A program made the position numbers and the translations under genes. Shown in pieces: positions 6,971-36,586 of a DNA stretch of 64,000 bases. Below the pieces are notes generated by a model. That model ran no database searches. It worked only from the letters and a program-made list of their open reading frames with translations, and was not told where the DNA came from. The stretch lies in NCBI GenBank assembly GCA_041651415.1, contig JBAZJH010000001.1:215713-279712 (forward strand), given 5' to 3'. Within the stretch, counting starts at the first letter, position 1. Every line of letters begins with the position of its first letter. The stretch is from Minisyncoccota bacterium. GTDB lineage: Bacteria > Patescibacteriota > Minisyncoccia > UBA6257 > XYB1-36-10.

Positions 6971-7270
6971 TTAACAAACAAAAGCAATTTTCAAATAAAA
7001 ATAGACGATAAAGAAAAAAACCGCAAAGAAAAGAATAGCAGTGGTGGAGAGAAAAATCATTTCTTTCATTTTAAAATAAAGATCTCTCCTTATTTGCCCC
7101 TTTTCTCCTTCTGTATTGTCAAAAGCTATATAAATCCAAATTTCTTTTCCTATTTGATTGTACTTATAAAAACGGCAATAAAGAAGAAAAGATAGAATGA
7201 AGCTGATAATTCCTGCTCCGAGAACAATGTTTTTGAGCAGATAAAACTGCCCAAGAGTCATTTCGATCAT
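6971..7270 (-). CDS. small membrane protein, unknown function
   Basis: Three predicted transmembrane segments. Ends before the hairpin terminator at 6935-6965. Confidence 0.35.
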   Translation of the reverse strand: MIEMTLGQFYLLKNIVLGAGIISFILSFLLYCRFYKYNQIGKEIWIYIAFDNTEGEKGQIRRDLYFKMKEMIFLSTTAILFFAVFFFIVYFYLKIAFVC

Positions 7271-7354
7271 TTTTAATCTCCTATTTTTGCCAACTGGCAG
7301 ATTTTTTATTTCAATTCTTTTAAAAGTTTTTCATATTTTGTATTTTTTGTCAAC

Positions 7355-7418
7355 AAAACTCCACGGCCGTAAGGCTGTGGAGTTTTAAGTTTCGCCCCAC
7401 AGAAAGGCGGTGTAAATA
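7355..7418. repeat. intergenic mosaic palindromic repeat (modules A+B, degenerate copy)
   Basis: AAAACTCCACGGCCGTAAGGCTGTGGAGTTTT hairpin followed by GTTTCGCCCCACAGAAAGGCGG…. Same family as the copies at 9.6, 11.7, 31.0, 32.6, 35.2, 51.2 and 56.2 kb. Confidence 0.6.
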
Positions 7419-7421
7419 ATT

Positions 7422-8153
7422 TTAATAGACGATATCTACGCCTTTTAAGACAGACTTTATCTTCTCCCCTTCCCCTGCCGGAAGATTATTTTTATAGATA
7501 TAAAGAGTGTCTAAATTCTTCAAGCCGGATATTTTTTCGGAAATGGCGGAAAAAAGCTTATTATTTGCCAAATCCAATTTAGTTAAAGAAGAAAGCGTCC
7601 AAAGTTCATCAGGAAGAGAAGAAAGAGAGTTAACATTCAAATAAAGCTCGGAGAGATTGGAAAGACTACCGATAGAAAGAGGGATCTCAGAAAGCTGATT
7701 ATTAGTCAGGTTTAAAACCACAAGCGAAGAAAGACTGCCGATATTTTCCGGCAAAGAAGAAAGAGAGTTATTGCTCAAATCAAGCAGACGCAAACGAGAA
7801 AGTTTGCCGAGACTAACCGGAAGTTCTTTCAAGCCGTTTTTTGAAGCGTGAAGCTCGACCAGATTCTCGAATTTATCAATATCGCCGGGAAGCGAACCGA
7901 GACCGGCATTATTCAAATCAAGCCAGCAAACGCTTTCCGGATTTTTTTGAGCTTCTTTCAAATCGGTGAAAGGATGTTCTTTGTCGCCAAGACAGAAACT
8001 TTTTCTTTTTTCCGTTAAATTAATTTCCGGCAAGACTGCTGATTCTTCTTGTTGAGATTTATTTTTAAGAAAACCGAAATAAAAGAAAGCGGAAACGAGA
8101 ACAATAAAAATAATAACAAAAACAAAGGAAAGTATCTTTTTATTATTTTTCAT
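7422..8153 (-). CDS. leucine-rich-repeat (LRR) surface protein with N-terminal membrane anchor
   Basis: N-terminal transmembrane/signal anchor, then about seven 22-23 aa repeats of LxxLxLxxNxLxxLPxxIGxLSx (e.g. LDLSNNSLSSLPENIGSLSSL). Confidence 0.75.
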   Translation of the reverse strand: MKNNKKILSFVFVIIFIVLVSAFFYFGFLKNKSQQEESAVLPEINLTEKRKSFCLGDKEHPFTDLKEAQKNPESVCWLDLNNAGLGSLPGDIDKFENLVELHASKNGLKELPVSLGKLSRLRLLDLSNNSLSSLPENIGSLSSLVVLNLTNNQLSEIPLSIGSLSNLSELYLNVNSLSSLPDELWTLSSLTKLDLANNKLFSAISEKISGLKNLDTLYIYKNNLPAGEGEKIKSVLKGVDIVY

Positions 8154-9579: not shown

Positions 9580-9602
9580 AAAACCCGAAAGGGTTTTTTA
9601 TT

Positions 9603-9724
9603 TTTATTAAATCTCCGCTTCAAACCCCTTAAGATAGCGCGCGGGGTTTGAAGCGGTAAAGATTTAAAATAAACCCCGACTTTCTACGGGGTGAAACTTT
9701 ATAGCCGAAGGCTGTGAAGTTTCG
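9603..9724. repeat. intergenic mosaic palindromic repeat (modules C-B-A, inverted orientation)
   Basis: Contains GGGGTTTGAAGCGGTAAAGATTTAA, AAACCCCGACTTTCTACGGGGTGAAAC and a GAAGGCTGTGAAG hairpin. It is the reverse complement of the layout at 11735-11895. Confidence 0.65.
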
Positions 9725-10168
9725 TTACTCTTCTTTTAAAATAATAATTTTCAGGTCGGCAAAAATTTCCGGAGTCAAGAAAATTCTTAGCGGATATTCT
9801 CCGAGCGTTTTTAAATGACTTTCAAATTCAATTTTGAAAGGCAAAAAGCCAAATTCTTTTTCAAAAATTTGAGAAATATCCTTTTCGGAAACTGAACCGA
9901 AAAGTTCTCCCTTCTCCCCCGCTTTTCTTGAAATTTCAAAAACCCGACCGGAAATTTTTTCTTTTTCTTTCAGAGCCAGATAATTTTTTTCTTCGTTTTT
10001 AACAAGAGCAGATTTTTTTTCCAGCTCTATTTTTTCAACTGATTTGGAATCGGCAATTTTGGCTAGCCCTCTCGGAATAAGAAAATTGCGAGCGTAGCCG
10101 TCCGAAACATTTTTGACTTCAAAACGGCGCCCGATTTTTTTGACGTCTTCCAGCAAGATTATTTTCAT
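9725..10168 (-). CDS. rplI: 50S ribosomal protein L9
   Basis: [36 protein letters not shown] is the canonical L9 N-domain. Confidence 0.9.
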
Positions 10169-11470: not shown

Positions 11471-11737
11471 ATGGAAGGCGTAGAAAAAGAAAAATACCTG
11501 GAAGAAATAAAAAAACGGAAGAAAAAATCCCGCGTTTATAAAAGATTCCAATTGATCGGACTTGAGATTGCCATGCATCTTGAAGACGAGAAGCACAAAT
11601 CGCTTTATATAAAAATGGCGAAATTCGGCGACTCGGATAAATTGCTCGCTCTTGCAAAAAATATCGGGGAGAATAAAAAAGCAAAAAATAAAGGAGCTTA
11701 TTTTATGAAAATGGCTATAAAAAAACTGGAAAAATGA
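11471..11737 (+). CDS. hypothetical small basic protein
   Basis: 88-aa K-rich ORF. Followed by mosaic repeat and hairpin+T-run terminator at ~11862-11895. Weak ribosome-binding site. Confidence 0.35.
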   Translation: MEGVEKEKYLEEIKKRKKKSRVYKRFQLIGLEIAMHLEDEKHKSLYIKMAKFGDSDKLLALAKNIGENKKAKNKGAYFMKMAIKKLEK

Positions 11738-11895
11738 AACTCCACGGCCTTACGGCCGTGGTATCCTGAGTTTCACCCCGCAGAAAGGCGGGGTTTATTA
11801 AATCTTTACCGCTTCATCCCCGCGCTAACGCGCGGGGTTTTTGCAAAGATTTAATAAATCCCCTTGGCGGAAAATTCCGTCAAGGGGTGTTTTTA
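11735..11895. repeat. intergenic mosaic palindromic repeat (modules A+B+C plus terminal hairpin)
   Basis: GAAACTCCACGGCCTTACGGCCGTGGTA, then GTTTCACCCCGCAGAAAGGCGGGGTTTATTAAATCT, then TTACCGC…CCCCGCGCTAACGCGCGGGG…AAAGATTTAATAAA. Ends with CCCCTTGGCGGAAAATTCCGTCAAGGGG and a T-run. Confidence 0.7.
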
Positions 11896-12036
11896 ATTTA
11901 AACTTATTCCTTTCTTTATTTCTTCGTTTTTAAAAAAATCAAAAATGTTTTTTATTTCCGCCTGAACTTTTTCAAGGACTTGATCCCAATCAAAACAATT
12001 GGGACAAACAAAAACAGAAGCTACCGATACGTTCAT
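11893..12036 (-). CDS. candidate small ORF (47 aa) with strong ribosome-binding site
   Basis: AAAAGGAGGAAGGAAATG places a near-perfect Shine-Dalgarno sequence 6 nt before the ATG. Encodes MNVSVASVFVCPNCFDWDQ…. Not in the six-frame track, which has a 60-aa cutoff. Confidence 0.25.
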   Translation of the reverse strand: MNVSVASVFVCPNCFDWDQVLEKVQAEIKNIFDFFKNEEIKKGISLN

Positions 12037-12174: not shown

Positions 12175-12684
12175 ATGAAAATTCTAACGATTGAAAAAAG
12201 AGAGGAGGAAAAGTTTCTGCGGAAGAAAACCGCGGAGTTTGATTTTTCCAAGTTTTCCAAAAAAGAAATAAATGAACTTCTCAAGGAAATGAGGAAAACG
12301 ATGAAAGAGAAAGACGGAGTGGGGCTCGCCGCCAATCAAGCCGGTTTTCTTTTTTCCATGTTTGTGGCGGAATCCCCCGCGCAAGGCGCCACGAGAAAAA
12401 GATTTTACGCGGTGTTTAATCCGAAAATAGAAAAAGTTTCCAAAGAAACGGAAAAGGATATTGAAGGTTGCTTAAGCGTGCCGGAAGTGATGGGAGAAGT
12501 GGAAAGATATAAAAAAATAACCGTTTCGGGATTTGACAGAAACGGCAAAAAAACAAAATTAAAAGTTTTTGGGTATACGGCAAGAATTTTTCAACATGAA
12601 ATCGACCACTTGAACGGAATTCTTTTTATTGACCGAGCTTCAAAAAAATTCAAAGTAACGGGAGAAAAAGTGATGAGAGGATAA
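12175..12684 (+). CDS. def: peptide deformylase
   Basis: All three PDF motifs: GVGLAANQ (motif 1), EGCLSVPE (motif 2), QHEIDHLNG (motif 3). Confidence 0.9.
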   Translation: MKILTIEKREEEKFLRKKTAEFDFSKFSKKEINELLKEMRKTMKEKDGVGLAANQAGFLFSMFVAESPAQGATRKRFYAVFNPKIEKVSKETEKDIEGCLSVPEVMGEVERYKKITVSGFDRNGKKTKLKVFGYTARIFQHEIDHLNGILFIDRASKKFKVTGEKVMRG

Positions 12685-12731
12685 AAATAAAAATATTAAT
12701 ACTTAATAATACATTGTAGTGACGCATTAGA

Positions 12732-12917
12732 CTAGTTTGATTCAAGAGGTGGTGAAAACTTTATTATTTTTTCCTCAATAGAAAGAGGTTGAGATTTGAT
12801 TTTGTTTTCTCTATCTTTTTTAACTATTCTCTCTGATTCAGAAATTGTTATTCTTATTTTTATATCTTGATTATTAGGAGAAATTGCCATTATGTTTTTT
12901 AATGAATGATATTGCAT
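12732..12917 (-). CDS. small hypothetical protein inside AT-rich insertion
   Basis: 61-aa ORF 12 nt downstream of the ClpP-like gene on the same strand. Same AT-rich codon usage as its neighbour. Confidence 0.3.
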   Translation of the reverse strand: MQYHSLKNIMAISPNNQDIKIRITISESERIVKKDRENKIKSQPLSIEEKIIKFSPPLESN

Positions 12918-12929
12918 ATTATTTAAGTT

Positions 12930-13862
12930 TTAATTTATTTCAGTATTAGCTAATTTAGATTCTTTTAATACAAAATCAATATAAACGTTTTCTTTACCCA
13001 AAACAAAATTATTTGATATTTGATTTAAAGTTTGTTCATATTCATTACCAAATTCTGTTGATTTTTTAATATTCGATAAAAATCTAGAAATTAAATCATA
13101 GTCAATTACATATCCATGATCAGGACAACCATTAACTAAATAATCAACGAGTATATTTTTATTTTCGTTTGAAATATCAGGATTGTAAAGTGATAAAATT
13201 CTTCGAGCATATTGTTCACCAATATCTAATTTTCTATTTTTATCTCCTATTTTGTACGGATTTATTTGTTTTAAGAGTGGTTCGTAAAATTTTGCTAAAT
13301 AATCAAGAATTTGTTTAGAAAGTTCATTTTTATTAATATGAATAAGATCACTCGTGTATAAGTCGGTAAACATTTTTAAATATAATTCTCGCGAACGAGT
13401 TTCTATTCTATTTAGTGAGTTTTCATCTATTAATGCACTTTCACTTTCAATATCTGGTCTATCATCTAATTCCTTTGGAATTTGCACATCTATCGGACCA
13501 AATTCACCGAACTCATCCATTATAATTTGAGAACCCCCTAACGAAAGTAATGTAGCGGCACTTTTTGCCCAAAAAGGTACAATAATATTTACTTTTGAAA
13601 AGTTTTTTCGAAGAGTCCTGATAATCCTATAAGCATCATCAGCACTTCCACCTGGTGAGTTTATAATAAAATCAATTTCATTAGAGAGAGGATTATCAAA
13701 TTTAAATTGTTGAATTTTTCCTCTTAATTTCATGAGAGTTTTAGGATTAATAACCTCAACAAATAGAAATTGCGGAATTTTCCTAATCTCTGATAGTTTT
13801 TTAATAAGTGATATGATTTCATCCATATGCCTAAAGTTTACATTGAGTGAAGCGAAATGCAA
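12930..13862 (-). CDS. ClpP/S49-fold serine peptidase-like protein (SDH/ClpP-class N-domain plus unknown C-domain)
   Basis: N-domain has IINSPGGSADDAYRIIRTL and …FWAKSAATLLSLGG…, which parallel the ClpP/SppA oxyanion and Ser regions. ~180-aa C-terminal extension of unknown function. Strongly AT-biased codons unlike the flanking def/fmt. Confidence 0.55.
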   Translation of the reverse strand: MHFASLNVNFRHMDEIISLIKKLSEIRKIPQFLFVEVINPKTLMKLRGKIQQFKFDNPLSNEIDFIINSPGGSADDAYRIIRTLRKNFSKVNIIVPFWAKSAATLLSLGGSQIIMDEFGEFGPIDVQIPKELDDRPDIESESALIDENSLNRIETRSRELYLKMFTDLYTSDLIHINKNELSKQILDYLAKFYEPLLKQINPYKIGDKNRKLDIGEQYARRILSLYNPDISNENKNILVDYLVNGCPDHGYVIDYDLISRFLSNIKKSTEFGNEYEQTLNQISNNFVLGKENVYIDFVLKESKLANTEIN

Positions 13863-14730
13863 ACTAGAGTGAAGCTCGATGAAATATTACTTATAACATC
13901 CATTATTTATAAGCTTTTTTTGGTTTTTTTGGCTCATTTTAGATAATAATTAGGTGTAGTGCTTGACATATTATTTAAAGTATGATATATTATATTTATA
14001 ATTAAAAGTTCTTTAAAAATAAGTAAAGTTTCCTACATAGCTTTGAGTTGATTATTTTAGTCACCTGCAAGCTGTGTGGGAAAATTTTCTCATTCAGCCA
14101 AACTATAGGTTGGCCGCTAATAACCTACTAAAAAAGCGGAGAAAAAAATGAGAATCGTATTGAATACGAAAATTAGCGTTGGTTTTTTGGGGGGGAGTTG
14201 CCGGGAATTTGGTCCAGAAGCAAATTTTTTTCCCGAGAAATGCGTTTGCAAATCGTGGGGAGTAATTGCAAGCGGATCAATGACGCCCACTGGCAAGGGC
14301 TCAGAAACAAAAGAGCCCTACAAAATATATCTCCCATGGCACGTGATTATGTCGATGAATGAGACATATTAATTAGTAGCATACATCAATCCCTGCACAA
14401 AGGTTCTAATCCTGCGTGTAGGGGTTTTTCTTTCCCAAAAAAACTAAAAAGAGCTCAATTTAAAAATAGAAATTATAAACAATATTTTATCGGGCGCAGC
14501 CAGATATACGGTGTTAGATAATGTAGCGACTGCAAGGAGCTATTTTATCTAACTCGTTTATATGCGAAGTGTTTTCGTATATTAAACACAATAATGCACT
14601 TTTTGCGAATATTGTGTATGATTTAGTTATACTAAAAATATCAATGAGCGTCTATTTAAAAAACTTGAATATGAATCGCAGCTTCGCAAATTTAGCTTTA
14701 AAACTATAAAAAATCCTTTAATATAAAATT

Positions 14731-15594
14731 ATGAAATTCGTATTTTGGGGGACACCGAGGTTTGCGGAAATTGTTCTAAAGGAACTGCTCCAGGCGGGAT
14801 TCAAGCCGGAGACAGTGGTTTGCAATCCTGACCGATTAGTCGGAAGAAAAAAAATACTCACTCCCCCGCCAGTAAAGATATTAGCGGAAGAAAAAGGCAT
14901 AAAAGTTTTTCAGCCGGAAATTTTAGATGAAAATTTTATAGAAGAACTGAAAAAAATAAATCCGGATTTTTTTGCGGTGGCGGCTTACGCCAAAATAATT
15001 CCGAAAGAAATCTTGGAAATTCCCCGACTCGGTTCGATAGGAATTCATCCATCGCTATTGCCGGATTTAAGAGGAGCAACTCCTATACAAACCGCCATTA
15101 TAAAGGGCTATAAAGAATCGGGAGTGTCTTTATACTTAATGGATGAAAAGATGGACCATGGGCCAATTTTAGGGCAAAAAGGGGTGATTTTGGAGACAAA
15201 AGGGCAAAAAATGGGCTATTTAGAAGCGGAAAAAGCTTTAGGAGAAGAGGGAGGAAAGCTGATAGCTAAAATCCTGCCTGATTTTATAAACGGCAAAATA
15301 GAGCCGAAAGAACAAAATCACGAAAAAGCCACTTTCACTAAAAAAATAAAGACCGAAGACGGATTGGTTGAGATTGAAGATTTAAAAGAAGCTCTAAACG
15401 GAAATCCGGAAAAAGCGAAAGAAATAGAGAAAAAGATTTTAGCGTTTAATCCGGAACCGGGAGTTTATGTTTTAAATCCAAAAAGAATAAAACTTTTGGA
15501 GGCAGAGATAAAAGAAGAGATATTAGTTTTAAAGAAAATCCAAATAGAAGGGAAAAAGCCGGTGGAAAAGTTCAGTATTGATATTTTTAAGTGA
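14731..15594 (+). CDS. fmt: methionyl-tRNA formyltransferase
   Basis: FWGTPRFA N-terminus, formyltransferase core (IHPSLLPDLRGATPIQTAI), C-terminal Fmt domain. Confidence 0.9.
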   Translation: MKFVFWGTPRFAEIVLKELLQAGFKPETVVCNPDRLVGRKKILTPPPVKILAEEKGIKVFQPEILDENFIEELKKINPDFFAVAAYAKIIPKEILEIPRLGSIGIHPSLLPDLRGATPIQTAIIKGYKESGVSLYLMDEKMDHGPILGQKGVILETKGQKMGYLEAEKALGEEGGKLIAKILPDFINGKIEPKEQNHEKATFTKKIKTEDGLVEIEDLKEALNGNPEKAKEIEKKILAFNPEPGVYVLNPKRIKLLEAEIKEEILVLKKIQIEGKKPVEKFSIDIFK

Positions 15595-15891: not shown

Positions 15892-16149
15892 GTGAATAAG
15901 AAATTATTTATCGGAGGCCTTCCTTGGAAAGTTACCGATAAAGATTTGTCTGACGCTTTCAGCGAAGCCGGCACAGTTGAATCAGCTTCCGTCGTCATTG
16001 ATAAAATGACAGGACGTTCAAGAGGATTCGGATTTGTGGAAATGGCTACTGAGGAAGACGCCCAGAAAGCCATCGAAATGTGGAATGGCAGAGAAATGGG
16101 AGGAAGAAACCTCGTAGTCAACGAAGCTAAACCGAAAGTGGAAAGATAA
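15892..16149 (+). CDS. RRM-type RNA-binding protein
   Basis: RNP-2 (LFIGGL) and RNP-1 (RGFGFVEM) motifs. 85 aa. Hairpin+T-run terminator at 16162-16188. Confidence 0.85.
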   Translation: MNKKLFIGGLPWKVTDKDLSDAFSEAGTVESASVVIDKMTGRSRGFGFVEMATEEDAQKAIEMWNGREMGGRNLVVNEAKPKVER

Positions 16150-16361
16150 GCTAAAAAAATACCCTGACGAAAGTCGGGGTGTTTTTTTAAAATAGATGGC
16201 CCCAGGGTTCCAGTCTGGGGCCTTCATGCATTCTCGGGAGAATGCATGATGTACCGCTTTTATTAAAACAGAAAGAAATAGAAAAAGCAAGAAGTTTTCC
16301 ACAGGACAAAAAAAGAGGAAAACCTTTACTTTTCTAAAAAAATAAAATAGAATGAAAATCA

Positions 16362-20858: not shown

Positions 20859-21093
20859 AATTAAAAATGAAGAAGAGTATAATAAAAAGTAGCATACAGA
20901 AAATCTTTTTTCCGTAAAGGTCCTCGGAAAAAAGAAATGCCTTGTCCCCTCTTTAATTAGGGGGGAATTTTTTATAAAAAATGGAAGGCGTTAATTATTT
21001 TCCTTATTCCAATGTTCTGCAGAACATTGGAATAAGAAATTCAAAAAATTGATTTTTGGCGGAAAAATAAGTATTATTTTAAAGAAAAAAGAA

Positions 21094-21157
21094 TGCCGGA
21101 TCGTCTAAAGGCCCGCCTCGACGAGCTGAGCTCGTCTCAGCGAGGCGGGTAGGACAT
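21094..21157 (+). pseudogene. duplicated 5' fragment of tRNA-Gln (first 26 nt) interrupted by a 38-nt palindromic insert
   Basis: TGCCGGATCGTCTAAAGG + [CCCGCCTCGACGAGCTGAGCTCGTCTCAGCGAGGCGGG] + TAGGACAT is identical to nt 1-26 of the intact tRNA-Gln at 21422. Similarity stops after that point. Confidence 0.55.
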
Positions 21158-21164
21158 AATAATA

Positions 21165-21413
21165 ATGCATATACTTCATCTGTTGAAAAGCATTAATTTT
21201 TCAAAAAGTTATATCGGTATAACTAATAATCCAGAAAGAAGATTAAAAGAACACAATTCTGGAAAAAGTTTTTACACAAAAAAGTATTCGCCATGGAAAA
21301 TAATTTATACCGAAGAATGTAAGAATTTCAAAGAAGCAAGAGAACGGGAAAAATTCTACAAATCAAGCGTAGGAAGAAGAGCTTTAAAAAAGATATTTGA
21401 TAAGTTAGGATAG
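21165..21413 (+). CDS. GIY-YIG nuclease-family small protein (UPF0213/YhbQ-like)
   Basis: …YIGITNNPERRLKEHNSG…TKKYSPW…EAREREKFYK… matches the GIY-YIG core (GIY…YIG…R…H…G…E). 82 aa. Bracketed by the tRNA-Gln 5' duplication. Confidence 0.8.
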   Translation: MHILHLLKSINFSKSYIGITNNPERRLKEHNSGKSFYTKKYSPWKIIYTEECKNFKEAREREKFYKSSVGRRALKKIFDKLG

Positions 21414-21421
21414 ATTATATT

Positions 21422-21495
21422 TGCCGGATCGTCTAAAGGTAGGACATGGGCCTTTGAAGCCCAGTATCTTGGTTCGATTCCAAGTCCGGCAGCCA
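21422..21495 (+). tRNA. tRNA-Gln (anticodon TTG), CCA encoded
   Basis: Folds by hand. Acceptor TGCCGGA/TCCGGCA with the U1:A72 pair typical of bacterial tRNA-Gln. D-stem GTCT/GGAC. Anticodon stem TGGGC/GCCCA with loop CTTTGAA. T-arm CTTGG-TTCGATT-CCAAG. Discriminator G, then CCA. Confidence 0.85.
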
Positions 21496-21680: not shown

Positions 21681-21884
21681 ATGTTTGATATATCAAAAAA
21701 CTTCGGGAAAAAAGTCAGGGAAATACGCCTAAGAAATAAGATGTCTCAAGCCGGTTTAGCCAAGATTCTTGGGGTACACCCCACCGATATTAGTGGTATC
21801 GAGCGCGGCATGAGAAATATGGCTCTTAAGAATATCGAAAGGTTAGCAAAAGCTTTGAACGTATCAGTTAAAGATTTACTCTAA
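21681..21884 (+). CDS. XRE-family helix-turn-helix transcriptional regulator
   Basis: …MSQAGLAKILGVHPTDISGIERGMRNMALKNIERLAKAL… is a classic Cro/C1-type HTH. 67 aa. Confidence 0.85.
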   Translation: MFDISKNFGKKVREIRLRNKMSQAGLAKILGVHPTDISGIERGMRNMALKNIERLAKALNVSVKDLL

Positions 21885-21891
21885 TAACACC

Positions 21892-22734
21892 ATGGCTCAA
21901 CCATTTAACTCAAACCTCGTAATAGAGGAAAAAATATCGGAAGCCGATTTTAAGGCCTATAGCGTCGGCTATGAGCAGAATCAATTCAGGTTTAAGCCTC
22001 TCGTCGATTTGATATGTGAGGTTATTCCCGAATTTGCGCTCGGTTACCATGAAGGCAAGGAGACGCCAAATACACAGATTGTTTCTAGACTTCGCGAAGC
22101 TGCGCGTACGATCTATGGTACTAACAAATTCGAAAATCGTGGTGAGTTTGGCGAGTTAATACTCCATCTATTACTTCGTGATTTCCACGACACGATTCCG
22201 TTAGTTGCCAAGATATATTTTAAAGATGCACAAAATAACGCCGTCCACGGATTTGATGGGGTACATATAACAATTGAACCAGGAAAGAAGAAGTTGTGGC
22301 TCGGGGAATCCAAGATTTACTCCGACGGCTTTGCAGGGATTTCTTCCTTAGCGGAAGATCTCGAAAAACATATTCAGGCAGACTACTTGAAGTCTGAATT
22401 CAGCCTTATAAAGCACAAGCTTCCTGCCAACACTCCCGAAATAGAATACTGGCGGAACCTTATGGATGAACATAAAAATCTCGACGAGATATTAAACGGA
22501 ATCTGTATCCCGATGGTCTGTACCTACTCAAGCAAGACAGTTAAAGACCATAACGCAATTACCAAAGATTATGTTAATGCTTTTACCGAAGAGTGCCAAA
22601 AACTGAAAGAGAAATTCGATGAGAAAAAGATCGCGACGAATGTCGAGGTAATTCTTATGCTTTTACCTATACCAGATAAAGAGGAATTGGTGACCGAATT
22701 AGACGAGCGATTAAAGGCCATGCGCATGGACTAA
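21892..22734 (+). CDS. PD-(D/E)XK-like protein, probable HamA (DUF1837-like) effector of a Hachiman-type defence system
   Basis: 280 aa directly upstream of an SF2 helicase. Candidate catalytic triad D122 (GFDGVH)…E139-S-K141 (LWLGESKIY). Size and gene order match the HamA-HamB architecture. The DUF1837 assignment is from memory of the family, not from a search. Confidence 0.5.
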   Translation: MAQPFNSNLVIEEKISEADFKAYSVGYEQNQFRFKPLVDLICEVIPEFALGYHEGKETPNTQIVSRLREAARTIYGTNKFENRGEFGELILHLLLRDFHDTIPLVAKIYFKDAQNNAVHGFDGVHITIEPGKKKLWLGESKIYSDGFAGISSLAEDLEKHIQADYLKSEFSLIKHKLPANTPEIEYWRNLMDEHKNLDEILNGICIPMVCTYSSKTVKDHNAITKDYVNAFTEECQKLKEKFDEKKIATNVEVILMLLPIPDKEELVTELDERLKAMRMD

Positions 22735-22741
22735 AAAATTT

Positions 22742-24907
22742 ATGGATACCGAAGCCGCAAAATTGTTAATTACCGAGAATCGAGACCTGAGTTTCGAAGA
22801 GAGCTTTCAGCTTTCTCAGTTATGCTCCAAGCTATTAAATGTAAAAGACGCGTCCATTGCTGGACGCGATTTAATTATTCGAGTTTTGGATATTTGGGAA
22901 CGAATTCCCGCGTCAACTCAGACAATGTGGAAAGACTTGATCGAAGCCGCGGGATTCTATCCTTATCTTGAAAAACAGGATTTGTGCGGAGCCGGACTTT
23001 TGCGTCGCGAATATCATCGCTCAAAATATCTTTCGGAAGAAACCTACCTACACGCCGAACAGATGGATCTCTCCATCATGCTGGATACCTCAAACAGCTT
23101 GATAGTCAGTGCTCCAACAAGTTTTGGCAAGAGTAAACTCATTGAAGAAATCGTTGCCAGTGGGAAGTATAATAATATTGTAATCATTCAACCCACGCTG
23201 GCGCTTTTAGATGAGACCAGAAAAAAACTGAGAAAATATGCAAGCGACTACAACATGGTCGTTACCACCACCCAAAAGCCCCAAAGTGGCAAGAACCTCT
23301 TCTTGTTTACTGGCGAGCGCGTTGCGGAGTACGAGCATTTCCCAGCTGTTGATTTTTTTGTAATTGATGAATTCTATAAATTGAGTATCGAGCGCGACGA
23401 TGAGAGGGCGGCTTCACTCAACCATGCGTTGTATAAGTTGCTTAGCATGACTCACAAATTCTATATGCTCGGTCCCAGCATTAACTCCATACCGCCGGGA
23501 TTCGCTGAGCGACACAACGCTGTATGGTTTAAGACTGATTTTGCAACCGTTGCCGTAGATATTGAGCGGATTTGGGAGAAAGTCGGGAGAGCAAAAGAAG
23601 AAGAAAAAGAAGCGCCGTTATTTGACCTCTTAAAAGACCTCAGGGAGCCAACAATCATTTACTGCAGTTCGCCAAATAAAACAAACAAACTCACTCAAAG
23701 CTTTTTAAAATATGTACTATTGAATGAAAAGCTCAAATCTGAACTCCAAAATAATAATAACGACAACGCAATCGACTGGATAAAAGAGAATATTCATGAG
23801 GACTGGATTCTTGCGAAGTCGCTTAAGTACTCTATCGGAATGCATCATGGTGCACTTCCACGCCATCTTTCAAGCTCTATTATCGATTTTTTTAATAGGG
23901 GCGATGTACGTTATCTATTTTGCACCTCTACGTTAATTGAAGGGGTTAACACCTCGGCAAAAAATGTCGTCCTATTTGACGAGAAGAAGGGATCAAAGGC
24001 GATTGACTATTTCGATTTTAAGAATATAGCTGGCCGATCTGGCAGAATGAAAGAACACTTCATCGGCAAAGTTTTTCAATTTCATAAAGAACCTAAGCAA
24101 GAGGAGCTCGATATTGATATTCCACTTTTTACTCAAACCAATGCCCCTCTCGAATTACTTGTCCAAATTGATCCAAAGGAAATTAAAGAGACCGCGATGA
24201 AGAAGTTGGTTAAATTCTCAGAGCTAAGTAATTCAGTACAAGAACTTATAAAGCAAAACAAGGGAGTTTCCGTGGAAGGGCAAATGACAGTAATCGATAT
24301 TTTGAGAAATAATATCGATACTCTCCATGACAAGATTTCCTGGAGCGGCGTCCCATGTTATCCGGAACTGGTTTACGTCATTAGTTTGGCTTGGGAACAC
24401 TTTCGAACAGTTCGCTCGTCAGAGGGTGGCGCTCACAGTCCCAAACATCTCGCTACTCTCACGCTTCAATATATTGGCACAAAGTCGATCAGAGGCATGA
24501 TTGATAAGATGGTTAAAAGCGATTATTGGGTAGCGCACAGACCCGATATACAAGAACGCATTGAGATTATTGTGGATACGGTTTTGCAAGTAAACCAGCA
24601 CTGGTTTAGATATAAGCTACCGAAGTGGCTTTCTGTATTGTCTGAAATTCAGAAATTTGTGTGTCAAGAAAAAGGTTTGCAGTTTGGAGATTATGGCGTA
24701 TTAGCCAATCTCATAGAAAATTCTTTCTTGCCAAGTCATTTGGGAGTCCTTCTTGAATATGGCTTACCACCATCTGCTATTAGAAAAATTGGCGACTATA
24801 TTAAGGAAGAAATGGAGCCGGAGAAATTGATTGCGGCAATCAAACGCCTTGATCCAAATAAGTTAGGACTACTTCCTTACGAAGTAGACAAGTTAAAAGA
24901 TTTATAA
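22742..24907 (+). CDS. superfamily-2 helicase, probable HamB of a Hachiman-type defence system
   Basis: Motif I APTSFGKS, motif II FFVIDEF, helicase C-terminal domain with FCTSTLIEGVNT and motif VI NIAGRSGR. 721 aa. GC-richer codon usage than the core genome. Confidence 0.65.
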   Translation: MDTEAAKLLITENRDLSFEESFQLSQLCSKLLNVKDASIAGRDLIIRVLDIWERIPASTQTMWKDLIEAAGFYPYLEKQDLCGAGLLRREYHRSKYLSEETYLHAEQMDLSIMLDTSNSLIVSAPTSFGKSKLIEEIVASGKYNNIVIIQPTLALLDETRKKLRKYASDYNMVVTTTQKPQSGKNLFLFTGERVAEYEHFPAVDFFVIDEFYKLSIERDDERAASLNHALYKLLSMTHKFYMLGPSINSIPPGFAERHNAVWFKTDFATVAVDIERIWEKVGRAKEEEKEAPLFDLLKDLREPTIIYCSSPNKTNKLTQSFLKYVLLNEKLKSELQNNNNDNAIDWIKENIHEDWILAKSLKYSIGMHHGALPRHLSSSIIDFFNRGDVRYLFCTSTLIEGVNTSAKNVVLFDEKKGSKAIDYFDFKNIAGRSGRMKEHFIGKVFQFHKEPKQEELDIDIPLFTQTNAPLELLVQIDPKEIKETAMKKLVKFSELSNSVQELIKQNKGVSVEGQMTVIDILRNNIDTLHDKISWSGVPCYPELVYVISLAWEHFRTVRSSEGGAHSPKHLATLTLQYIGTKSIRGMIDKMVKSDYWVAHRPDIQERIEIIVDTVLQVNQHWFRYKLPKWLSVLSEIQKFVCQEKGLQFGDYGVLANLIENSFLPSHLGVLLEYGLPPSAIRKIGDYIKEEMEPEKLIAAIKRLDPNKLGLLPYEVDKLKDL

Positions 24908-24958: not shown

Positions 24959-25291
24959 TTGAAATTCATAGTCCGCAAAAAAGTATTAAAGCGCATAAGC
25001 ATTACCACACCCGATGGAGAGACGATAGAAGAAAAAGGAAATATGGATGTTGAAATAACAATTGATGCTTTACACTATAAAAGAAAGTACGACGCTGCAA
25101 TATTTTTTACCGGTGATTCTGATTTTTTAGCGTTAATAACCTATCTGCAGAGAGATGGAAAAAAAGTGTATGTATTTTCTTCGAAAAATAATATTTCCGA
25201 AGAGCTACGAACTGGAAGTGATGGGTATTCTGATGTGTTAATTATCACAAACGACATCTGGGGAAGAGAATTAAAACATCGTTTAAAATGA
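24959..25291 (+). CDS. truncated NYN (LabA/YacP-like PIN-fold) domain protein
   Basis: …MDVEITIDALHY…AIFFTGDSDFLALITYLQRDGKKVYVFS… matches the central and C-terminal NYN motifs (D…D and SGDSDF…GK.V). The N-terminal conserved Asp region is missing. Hairpin terminator at 25296-25320. Confidence 0.5.
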   Translation: MKFIVRKKVLKRISITTPDGETIEEKGNMDVEITIDALHYKRKYDAAIFFTGDSDFLALITYLQRDGKKVYVFSSKNNISEELRTGSDGYSDVLIITNDIWGRELKHRLK

Positions 25292-35089: not shown

Positions 35090-35147
35090 AGAAAAGGAAT
35101 AAAATCTTTTTCAGAAGAAACCAAAACGGAGCTTTTGCTCCGTTTTT

Positions 35148-35274
35148 TTTATTAAATCTTCGCGAAAACCCCGCGCGTTAGCTAGGGAGTTGAAGCGGTA
35201 AAGATTTAATAAACCCCGCCTTTCTGCGGGGTGAAACTCAGGGTACCACGGCCGTAAGGCCGTGGAGTTTCATT
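35148..35274. repeat. intergenic mosaic palindromic repeat (modules C-B-A, inverted orientation)
   Basis: …ATTAAATCTTCGCGAAAACCCCGCGCGTTAGC…GAAGCGGTAAAGATTTAATAAACCCCGCCTTTCTGCGGGGTGAAACTCAGGGTACCACGGCCGTAAGGCCGTGGAGTTTCA. Confidence 0.7.
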
Positions 35275-35323
35275 TGTAATAATGTGCCTCCGACCAGAGT
35301 CGGAGGAATAAAAGCTAAAGCTT

Positions 35324-36586
35324 TTATTCATACTGGCGGATGGCAAGCTGGGATTCAACTTGGCGCATTATTTCAAGAGCCACAGAAACAACGATTAAGA
35401 GAGACGTGCCGCCTAAGCGGAACATTGCGATGCCTGTTAAACCTTGAATGATATTCGGAAGAACGGCGATAAGCCCCAAAAAGAGAGCGCCGAAAAGAGT
35501 GGTGCGTCCGGTGATTTTGGCAAGATAAGAACTGGTTTGTTCTCCCGGGCGAAGGCCGGGAATAAATCCACCGCTCTTTTGAAGATTTTTGGAAATTTCC
35601 GCCGGGTCGAAAGTAACGGCCGTGTAGAAATAAGTGAAAAGAACAACCATTACAAAATAAGAGATGCCGTAGATCCAGCCATTATTAAAAAGATAAAGAA
35701 CCCACTCGTTCATTTTTATGGAAAGGTCTGGAGAAAAAAGAGAAAAAGCCTGGGCGATAAACTGCGGAAAAAGCAAAACAGAAACGGCGAAAATAATCGG
35801 AATAACTCCGGCTTGATTTACTTTTAAAGGAAGATAACTCGAAACACCGCCATAAAGCTTGTTGCCGCGGACACGGCGGGCATAAGAAATGGGAACTTTT
35901 CTCTCGCCTTCATTAATAAAAACAACGCCAGCGATAACCACAACGCTGATTGCGGCAAAGAGAAGATAGCTTTGAAGCATAGAAGCGTCAAAAGAAAAAG
36001 CGGCTAGACGAAGATTAGCGGGAAGGCCGGCAATAATACCGGAAAAAATAAGAAGAGAAATACCGTTACCAAGGTGGTATTCGCTGATAAGTTCGCCGAG
36101 CCACATCAAAATAACCGAGCCGGCAGTGATAATTATCATATCGGCAAAAAGATTCCAGCCGCTTAAATTGGTGAAAACACCGCGAGAATTCAAGAAGTTT
36201 AAAAAACCGTAAGATTGAACAAGAGCAAGAGGAATGGTGATAAGACGGGAAACACGATTGAATTTTGCCCGTCCCATTTCCCCTTCTTCATAATACATCT
36301 TTTTAAGATTAGGAAAAACGATGGTTAAAAGCTGCATAATAATAGTGGCCGTAATATAAGGGCCGACACCAAGCATGGCGATGGAAAGATTAGACAGCCC
36401 GCCGCCGGAAAAAATATCAAGAAAACCAAGAAGCTGGTTGGAAGAAAAGAGATTTTTTAAGCGTTCAAAATCAACATTCGGAACCGGAATGGAAGCAAGA
36501 AGACGAGAGACAGCCAAGAGTCCGATAATCGAGAAAACTTTGTATCGCAGGTCTTTTATTTTAAAAACGTTCAGAGGGTTGATCAT
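35324..36586 (-). CDS. secY: preprotein translocase subunit SecY
   Basis: 10-TM SecY topology. 420 aa. Sits between rplO and adk. Confidence 0.9.
   Translation of the reverse strand: MINPLNVFKIKDLRYKVFSIIGLLAVSRLLASIPVPNVDFERLKNLFSSNQLLGFLDIFSGGGLSNLSIAMLGVGPYITATIIMQLLTIVFPNLKKMYYEEGEMGRAKFNRVSRLITIPLALVQSYGFLNFLNSRGVFTNLSGWNLFADMIIITAGSVILMWLGELISEYHLGNGISLLIFSGIIAGLPANLRLAAFSFDASMLQSYLLFAAISVVVIAGVVFINEGERKVPISYARRVRGNKLYGGVSSYLPLKVNQAGVIPIIFAVSVLLFPQFIAQAFSLFSPDLSIKMNEWVLYLFNNGWIYGISYFVMVVLFTYFYTAVTFDPAEISKNLQKSGGFIPGLRPGEQTSSYLAKITGRTTLFGALFLGLIAVLPNIIQGLTGIAMFRLGGTSLLIVVSVALEIMRQVESQLAIRQYE

Follow-up and report, generated by a model that had tools for sequence, protein, structure and literature searches.

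Serine proteinases of the SDH type (PF01972, formerly SDH_sah; NF047768) combine a ClpP-like N-terminal half with a helical C-terminal half and have, according to the Pfam description, a catalytic serine, aspartate and histidine in that sequence, the order behind the family name. Here we describe a protease gene of this family, accompanied by a small partner gene, within a 2 kb insertion separating def from fmt in a Minisyncoccota bacterium (GenBank assembly GCA_041651415.1, contig JBAZJH010000001.1). The window is the whole stretch of 64,000 nt that was analyzed (contig positions 215,713–279,712), and coordinates refer to it unless another locus (L003, L031 and so on) is named. On balance, we favor the reading that the insertion is an accessory cassette of two genes, self-contained, recently acquired and derived from a mobile element, whose most likely role, the more conjectural part of this reading, would be in phage conflict. 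An earlier note on this DNA, made from its letters and open reading frames (ORFs), had drawn attention to the locus.

Many homologues of the window protease bear the SDH name in NCBI and UniRef. A DefenseFinder system containing an SDH_sah component is named FS_HP_SDH_sah (PMC13532340). It resembles the window locus in combining a small hypothetical protein with a protease of the SDH_sah family (PF01972 match) on mobile DNA. A Klebsiella prophage carries such a pair, a 71-aa ORF and an SDH-like protease, the latter remotely homologous to the window protease over its full length; SDH proteases of enterobacterial prophages are ~23–26% identical to it. FS_HP_SDH_sah is reportedly cargo of phage-inducible chromosomal islands (PICIs), whereas the window locus belongs to a host from the Candidate Phyla Radiation (CPR) and has no PICI or prophage around it. 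Because its protease is remote, its small gene lies downstream and no PADLOC model matches it, we do not file the cassette as a member of FS_HP_SDH_sah. In kind, it resembles known SDH_sah-type systems and is not categorically new.

Another point of comparison is the slot between cI and N in lambdoid phages. Lambda has rexAB at this place and 933W has stk, in both cases for exclusion functions expressed in the lysogenic state. A distant homologue of the window protease, annotated as "SDH family Clp fold serine proteinase", occupies exactly this slot in a lambdoid prophage of E. coli, where it is located directly downstream of a cI-like repressor gene, co-oriented with it and before N. RexA, RexB and Stk have no sequence relationship to the protease, and the window copy lies outside any prophage. 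More broadly, ClpP (S14), SppA/SohB (S49), NfeD and prohead proteases share the fold and place their nucleophilic serine at the same position. The catalytic order of ClpP is Ser-His-Asp, in contrast to the predicted Ser-Asp-His of the window protease, which would draw its histidine from the C-terminal helical region.

A foreign insertion at the def–fmt junction

The earlier note held that def and fmt, which are normally adjacent, are split in the window by an AT-rich insertion of about 2 kb, and comparison with related loci bears this out. Both genes are intact (Table 1). In L031, the closest relative compared (fmt 87% identical, C-terminal 81 aa of def 91% identical), the def stop is followed after 19 nt by the fmt start; in L034 and L035 (fmt 67% identical) the gap is 4 nt, and L034 retains synteny with the window over more than 10 kb, the insert aside. 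The gene order L9, S41 protease, small ORF, def, fmt, RRM protein, MacB/ABC/MFP is common to the window and its relatives. In all 31 related loci possessing both genes, def stands immediately 5′ of fmt on the same strand. The gap is at most 135 nt in 27 of them, and three others have gaps of 427, 445 and 1,389 nt; the 2,046 nt of the window make up the largest gap in this set. The DNA that separates the two genes in the window is an insertion. The identical sequence is present in two independent assemblies, and the protease, fmt and the 61-aa ORF each find a 100% match among entries from metagenome-assembled genomes (MAGs) of Candidatus Paceibacterota.

The note had further called this a hyper-conserved operon junction. 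The adjacency of the two genes is indeed conserved throughout the 31 loci, but the junction is not inviolable in this Paceibacterota lineage, as four other relatives carry different small inserts at the same place (Table 1). Given these inserts in L047, L052 and L032/L033, we regard the junction as a recurrent landing place for small foreign genes.

Base composition sets the insert apart as well (29.1% GC vs. 39.1% for the window). The protease gene has a GC content of 0.269 and a third-position GC content (GC3) of 0.140, whereas the 47 window ORFs of at least 150 aa average 0.399 (standard deviation, sd, 0.040) and 0.375 (sd 0.060), respectively; the protease gene is the sole one of the 47 to lie more than 2 sd below the mean. 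The remark of the note that codon usage here is more AT-rich than in the flanks therefore stands. In every one of 21 loci containing a homologue, AT content is higher in the protease gene than in its flanks. Flavobacterium and Pedobacter show a small difference, and for Polaribacter, Tenacibaculum and Chitinophaga cymbidii it is nearly nil. As the difference is so slight in these hosts, an AT-rich Bacteroidota pool is a plausible reservoir of the gene. Homologues with 50–70% identity come mostly from Bacteroidota (Flavobacterium, Aequorivita, Polaribacter, Tenacibaculum, Chitinophaga, Pedobacter, Larkinella), and beyond this phylum from Balneola, Ignavibacteria, Dadabacteria and Saccharibacteria. 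An insert missing from the closest relatives, its foreign composition and nearest homologues lying mostly in Bacteroidota agree with the proposal that the insertion is horizontally acquired cargo.

The note had allowed that the gene might be shared by relatives at the same site, or might turn out to be a housekeeping SppA. A housekeeping protease, SppA-like or paralogous to ClpP and tied to the N-terminal processing carried out by the def and fmt products, could be imagined from the position between these two genes and from weak matches to SppA and ClpP models. These matches, however, remain far under the cut-offs (17 bits vs. 155 for the SppA domain model TIGR00706, 25 vs. 228 for the ClpP model). 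Moreover, no relative has the gene at this site, the closest ones lack it altogether, it lies on the strand opposite to def and fmt, its composition is foreign, and the same cassette occurs in unrelated contexts elsewhere; the housekeeping explanation is effectively refuted.

Table 1. Coordinates of the features discussed, in the window (upper rows) and in compared loci (last rows).
Feature	Coordinates	Strand	Evidence and remarks
def, peptide deformylase, 169 aa, intact	12175–12684	+	Pfam Pep_deformylase, E 1.3e-48; left border of the insertion
Whole insertion, 2,046 bp, 29.1% GC, strain-specific	12685–14730	.	Missing from L031, L034 and L035
Partner gene, charged product of 61 aa, for the most part a single long helix by prediction	12732–12917	−	12 nt downstream of the protease
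SDH-type ClpP-fold serine protease, 298 aa	12930–13826	−	PF01972 above cut-off, PHROG matches, AF2/Foldseek, invariant Ser/Asp/His
Inverted repeat, left arm	13874–13932	.	61-nt imperfect repeat, 77% identity; self-blastn of the stretch
Promoter-like site facing fmt, TTGACA-17-TATATT with TG (extended −10), 11/12	13963–13991	+	Consensus scan; candidate
Promoter-like site facing the protease, TTTAAA-17-TATAAT, 10/12	13989–14017	−	Consensus scan; candidate
Long terminator-like hairpin, ~15 paired bases in outer stem	14029–14083	+	Fold of 14020–14100: −28.4 kcal/mol, z −5.0
Orphan 74-aa ORF	14148–14372	+	In a 39% GC stretch open in 5/6 frames
Terminator-like hairpin followed by U-run	14388–14437	+	Fold of 14378–14445: −20.1 kcal/mol, z −4.9
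Inverted repeat, right arm	14435–14495	.	Self-blastn; the arms bracket a GC-richer core
Hairpin and 29-nt motif CTCGTTTATATGCGAAGTGTTTTCGTATA	14512–14599	+	~150 nt upstream of fmt; nhmmer match to L061, E 4.8e-4
fmt, methionyl-tRNA formyltransferase, 287 aa, intact	14731–15594	+	Pfam Formyl_trans_N, E 9.2e-33; right border of the insertion
Insert at def–fmt junction: PD-(D/E)XK gene (PDDEXK_3, GxxExxY-type)	L047 1031–1475		Gap of 445 nt
Insert at def–fmt junction: 23S_rRNA_IVP four-helix-bundle gene	L052 3568–3994		Gap of 427 nt
Insert at def–fmt junction of L032/L033: 66-aa membrane-like and 246-aa secreted-looking proteins	L032 2929–4317		Gap of 1,389 nt; no Pfam match
E. coli prophage SDH locus, cI–N slot	L071 6163–8857		NZ_CP019259.1, 4058001–4060695

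A ClpP-fold protease of the SDH type

The minus-strand ORF at 12930–13862 includes the INSPGGS and AKSAATL motifs quoted in the note, which had described an oppositely oriented gene of 310 aa. Orientation and motifs hold, but the length does not: as the homologues and the database entry all begin at the ATG at 13826, the protease has 298 aa, and the 310-aa form starting from a TTG (13862) is an over-extension. Pfam assigns the product to two of the families that the note expected, SDH_sah, now SDH_protease (PF01972; 48.4 bits, cut-off 31.3), and Clp_protease (24.3 bits, cut-off 20.2).

A ClpP-like protease is also what the structural model suggests. The AlphaFold2 (AF2) prediction, with 21 homologues as input, has a pLDDT of 81 and a pTM of 0.73. 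In Foldseek searches, the N-terminal 110–180 residues superpose on many ClpP structures and on NfeD 1510-N (E 1e-6 to 1e-5), and for most structures of the ClpP, SppA, NfeD and prohead group the alignment is confined to this part. The whole chain (285–297 columns, TM ~0.5) aligns with giant-virus proteins annotated as serine dehydrogenase proteinase. Given this alignment, the C-terminal half, taken in the note for a fused domain of unknown nature, is instead the ordinary helical half of the SDH family, carrying the conserved histidine.

Five residues, S89, D113, D228, H237 and D242, are invariant in an alignment of 21 sequences. Ser89 is found in AKSAATL, Asp113 in GPxD and His237 in CPDHGYVIDYD, and together they are predicted to form the catalytic triad, which would fit the Ser-Asp-His order. 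The Klebsiella prophage homologue, 23% identical, keeps the motifs KSA, GPLD and HG(Y/F)VID, and hhalign pairs it with the window protease over 262 columns (probability 99.5%, E 2.5e-22). The window protease belongs to a distinct SDH subfamily centered on Bacteroidota, with conserved motifs of its own (PFWAKSAATL and NGCPDHGYVIDYD) and a dedicated small partner gene.

The best PHROG matches, nearly full-length, are phrog_21683 (1.3e-24) and phrog_11747 (2.9e-21), both families of unknown function. Head maturation proteases related to ClpP are matched more weakly (E 5e-8 to 1e-4 in PHROG, 2.9e-9 for the NCBIfam counterpart), and the head protease model NF045542 gives 37 vs. a cut-off of 120. 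These weaker matches, along with a loose resemblance of a protease overlapped by a small ORF to lambda C/Nu3, could point to a stray phage prohead protease with a scaffold-like partner, i.e., to a gene of the structural module. We consider this very improbable. The two leading PHROGs are of unknown function, neither a portal nor a capsid gene recurs beside the cassette in the 22 loci compared, the window protease is not accompanied by a head module, and the homologue in the E. coli lambdoid prophage resides in the immunity region and not in the head module.

A fast-evolving partner gene

The 61-aa ORF that the note placed 12 nt downstream of the protease gene is present (Table 1) and, as its recurrence across loci argues, is a real conserved partner of the protease. 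It is 63% identical to the ORF located right after the 70%-identical protease in L003/L005. In nine further loci, the start of an ORF of 50–67 aa lies near the protease stop, from 28 nt upstream of it to 82 nt downstream, and the ORF often overlaps the protease tail. A partner profile detects the ORF at the same position in L037 (E 6.5e-15) and gives weak matches (E 0.002–0.04), again at this position, in L011, L019/L038, L017, L006 and L016; the overlapping 66-aa ORF of the viral contig L039 is counted by position. Altogether the partner is present in ~15 of the 17 testable loci with a protease identity of at least 52%, including Bacteroidota, Balneola, Saccharibacteria and a viral contig. 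The distant CPR homologues L022–L025 (39–42% protease identity) have no recognizable partner ORF. No third conserved neighbor recurs beside the pair in the 22 loci compared.

Partner sequences diverge rapidly, an arginine being the only nearly invariant residue, and just 15 homologues, all of them unnamed, are detectable among 5.8 billion clusters. A Pfam search with it returned no match, and AF2 predicts a helix at residues 17–42 (pLDDT 77). A ribbon-helix-helix antitoxin was considered as its identity and found unsupported, AF2 predicting helices only and Pfam finding nothing.

The pair could nevertheless represent an addiction or toxin–antitoxin-like module, in which a potentially toxic protease is restrained by its rapidly changing small partner, or vice versa. 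The cassette would then be retained because its loss is costly, and would have no anti-phage role of its own. Such a module would suit the compact two-gene operon with translational coupling or overlap at many loci, the rapid divergence of the partner around a single nearly invariant residue, the patchy distribution, the AT-rich composition and the ParE toxin gene found near the cassette in L038. However, the partner is unlike known antitoxins in both sequence searches and predicted fold, a ClpP-fold protease of 298 aa is not among the known toxin classes, and the more distant homologues L022–L025 show no recognizable partner. We therefore consider a toxin–antitoxin-like nature unlikely.

Genomic contexts of the homologues

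The genomic context of the cassette homologues with 50–70% identity differs at each locus. In a Chitinophaga integrative element or prophage, the surroundings include a Toprim primase, repressors, ParE, a serine recombinase and an adjoining methylase/DrmE/NERD cluster. In L016, the protease gene lies directly upstream of that for the terminase small subunit. The homologue on L039, a viral contig from IMG/VR, has genes for a Fic protein and an IS1595 transposase beside it. In L013 (Tenacibaculum), too, the cassette adjoins a gene for such a transposase, which hints at one route of mobility. The two transposases, of the IS1595 family (ISXO2-like; L013 4907–5839 and L039 9099–9926), are homologous to each other.

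Distant homologues are found in phages and prophages. In a P2-like Burkholderia phage, the homologue is the last gene after the integrase; in the Klebsiella prophage, it forms an oppositely oriented pair with the 71-aa ORF beside XRE/ImmA. Relatives of the gene are present in 49 out of 5,426 complete E. coli genomes, one copy being that of the cI–N slot described above. With relatives located in the immunity slots of prophages, the protease gene probably has a part in phage conflict. The suggestion of the note that the cargo might be a phage-defense or abortive-infection protease, or a phage remnant, is consistent with these prophage and moron contexts.

The closest cassette (70% identity; L003 9147–10931) stands directly after uvrA, and beyond it lie a pair of unannotated genes, of 154 and 176 aa, and a gene encoding a NYN domain; the MAG carrying it bears the label Gammaproteobacteria.

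DNA upstream of the protease gene

As the protease starts at the ATG at 13826, the stretch without a recognized gene extends over 13827–14730 (904 bp). The note had reported ~870 bp of non-coding DNA at 13863–14730; a long geneless stretch does exist, but its bounds differ and it holds a 74-aa ORF picked by gene callers. A search with this ORF against 1.84 billion representatives retrieved the ORF itself and three repeat proteins matching spuriously (many weak stretches adding up), and no match was obtained in Pfam, PHROG, NCBIfam or PADLOC. It is probably not a conserved protein gene.

Two promoter-like sites, one on each strand, stand back to back in this stretch (Table 1). They are candidates only, since the number of such sites in the region does not exceed the expectation from shuffled sequence. 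An origin of the 61-nt inverted repeat in a miniature inverted-repeat transposable element was considered and dropped, there being no target-site duplication and no second copy in the window.

The content of this stretch bears on the possibility that the insert is what decay has left of a phage or mobile element and at present does nothing for the host, the 900 bp being the wreck of further genes. Half of the insert lacks a recognizable gene, the imperfect inverted repeat brackets part of it, and a mobility gene is no longer present, all of which such decay would explain. On the other hand, both ORFs are intact, the catalytic residues are conserved, the partner is still 63% identical to that of the nearest relative, a promoter-like pair is present, and two independent assemblies contain the identical sequence. 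No pseudogene remnant was detected, since Pfam found nothing in any of the eight open frame fragments of at least 45 aa in the unassigned DNA. Neither a blastn search of the stretch against phage and plasmid collections nor a scan of viral contigs for two exact 20–23-mers gave a match. A remnant is thus about as improbable an explanation, in our view, as a toxin–antitoxin-like module.

It may also be asked whether 13990–14440 is a novel structured non-coding RNA of ~430 nt that forms a functional part of the cassette. This is suggested by a near-consensus promoter-like site (11/12), a terminator-like hairpin with a U-run, a GC content of 39% within an AT-rich insert, the orphan status of the embedded 74-aa ORF and the fold of 13995–14440, whose minimum free energy (MFE) has a z-score of −6.45. 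The fold signal is not exceptional for this genome, however, because a dozen 300-nt segments of the window fold more extremely (down to z −11.7; window-wide mean −1.2, sd 2.1), and the claim of an exceptional structured RNA at 13995–14440 was dropped for this reason. Rfam yields nothing at the gathering threshold and, for the insert at E up to 10, chance-level matches only; ARAGORN finds no tRNA or transfer-messenger RNA in the insert. No homologue of the putative RNA was seen in viral contigs, in the fetched loci or among the phages and plasmids of the collections searched, and the other cassette loci have no comparable upstream stretch; in L003, for instance, the protease gene starts 20 nt after uvrA. 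We judge an RNA of this kind to be a rather improbable component, slightly more so than either of the two preceding alternatives.

An nhmmer search of the stretch against all fetched loci gave a sole match, the element at 14512–14599, in L061. There, at 97–189 and upstream of def, a hairpin with a different stem is followed by the 29-nt motif (CTCGTTTATATGCGAnnTnTTTTCGTATA), 26 positions of which are identical to the window; the proteins of L061 are only ~51–55% identical to those of the window. The motif is unique in the window, and 0 chance matches are expected. As a lead from two sequences, the element may be a native, conserved cis-regulatory element of the def–fmt unit that now serves fmt.

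Proposed role of the cassette

The favored reading of the 2 kb as an acquired two-gene cassette has direct support in the insertion itself, its foreign composition, the family membership of the protease, the conserved catalytic residues, the conservation of the partner and the mobile contexts of homologues. The existence of the named system FS_HP_SDH_sah and the presence of a Hachiman system ~7 kb from the cassette also count in its favor. The source would most likely be an AT-rich gene pool of the Bacteroidota type, from which the cassette may have entered the def–fmt junction, a site tolerant of small inserts in this Paceibacterota lineage. It is predicted to encode an SDH-type serine protease with a ClpP fold, residing in the cytoplasm, and a co-transcribed, small, charged helical partner, the two probably being expressed from a promoter of their own (candidate site 13989–14017).

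We hypothesize that the pair takes part in phage–host or phage–phage conflict, i.e., in defense or superinfection exclusion. The protease would act as the effector, and the partner as a regulator, an adaptor or a substrate. The target might be proteins of the infecting phage, in particular assembly proteins, which would be cleaved or mis-processed, or else host proteins, cleaved as a form of abortive infection. Cleavage of phage proteins is proposed because the protease family is akin to the ClpP-like prohead proteases. The oligomeric state of the protease, the role of the partner, the target and the anti-phage effect are what we infer on top of the observed features.

Several observations weigh against this reading. 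The PF01972 alignment joins residues 57–129 of the 310-aa translation to profile positions 88–160 of 286, i.e., ~73 residues; since the match is confined to this part, we take the protease for a member of a divergent subfamily. With NF047768, the NCBIfam equivalog model Clp_like_SDH, the score is 53.1 bits vs. a cut-off of 250, and the protease is accordingly best described, by its sequence, as a relative of that equivalog group and not a member. It differs from the typical SDH proteinases also in its own motifs and its small partner. In FS_HP_SDH_sah the small gene reportedly lies upstream of the protease gene, whereas in the window family it lies downstream. Neither an integrase, a transposase, a tRNA nor a flanking direct repeat was found at the insert of the window, and in the window, L036 and L003 alike the cassette is surrounded by housekeeping genes; a mobility gene is lacking at these sites, and no insertion scars were found. 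In PADLOC-DB v2 (5,027 models, E up to 1), the protease, the partner and the 74-aa ORF are all unmatched, while HamA and HamB of the window, serving as a positive control, score 298 and 771 bits, respectively. Finally, a literature search on PF01972/SDH_sah proteases, including anti-phage roles, gave nothing useful, papers on PF01972 being essentially absent from the collection searched.

A bolder proposal would see in the pair an unrecognized, widespread two-gene anti-phage or exclusion system, centered on Bacteroidota and reaching into CPR, which would differ from the enterobacterial HP+SDH_sah pairs in both partner and gene order; the protease would sabotage phage assembly proteins, and the partner would gate it. 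We hold this to be possible but doubtful, clearly less probable than the general reading of an acquired accessory cassette. Its extension, according to which the ~430-nt promoter-to-terminator unit is a new structured RNA belonging to the same system, is less likely still.

Other features of the window

A complete Hachiman system is encoded at 21681–24907 (+), ~7 kb from the cassette and adjoining a tRNA-Gln gene (21422–21495). It comprises a C-protein-like helix-turn-helix protein (67 aa), HamA (280 aa) and HamB (721 aa), and a small NYN-like ORF follows HamB at 24959–25291.

Compared with dinucleotide shuffles, the strongest-folding 300-nt segments are 21001–21300 (z −11.7), 11701–12000 (−9.9) and 15901–16200 (−8.8), with further strong segments at 9601–9900 (−7.7), 7201–7500 (−7.6) and 35101–35400 (−7.4). 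None of them matches Rfam at the gathering threshold, and long hairpins or structured elements seem to be abundant in this genome.

Between the S41 protease gene and def, an 88-aa ORF with no Pfam match is located at 11471–11737. ORFs of 87 and 91 aa stand at the equivalent spot in L032 and L034, the likeness being one of position and length. Downstream of the 88-aa ORF are 437 bp without a convincing gene, which include a segment that ranks among the strongest-folding of the window.

Significance

CPR bacteria, with their minimal genomes, are regarded as sparsely armed. Against this background, the locus represents a recent cross-phylum acquisition of a likely conflict cassette by a CPR bacterium, inside one of the most conserved gene pairs of bacteria. 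It is evidence of gene flow into CPR and of a site at which insertion is tolerated. ClpP-like proteases of the SDH type are almost unstudied, yet they occur in prophage immunity slots, in P2-like hotspots, in giant viruses and in a named defense system. The links of the family to phage conflict are strong, though circumstantial. The protease and its previously unannotated small partner offer a concrete two-component unit, belonging to a subfamily that is missed by current PADLOC models.

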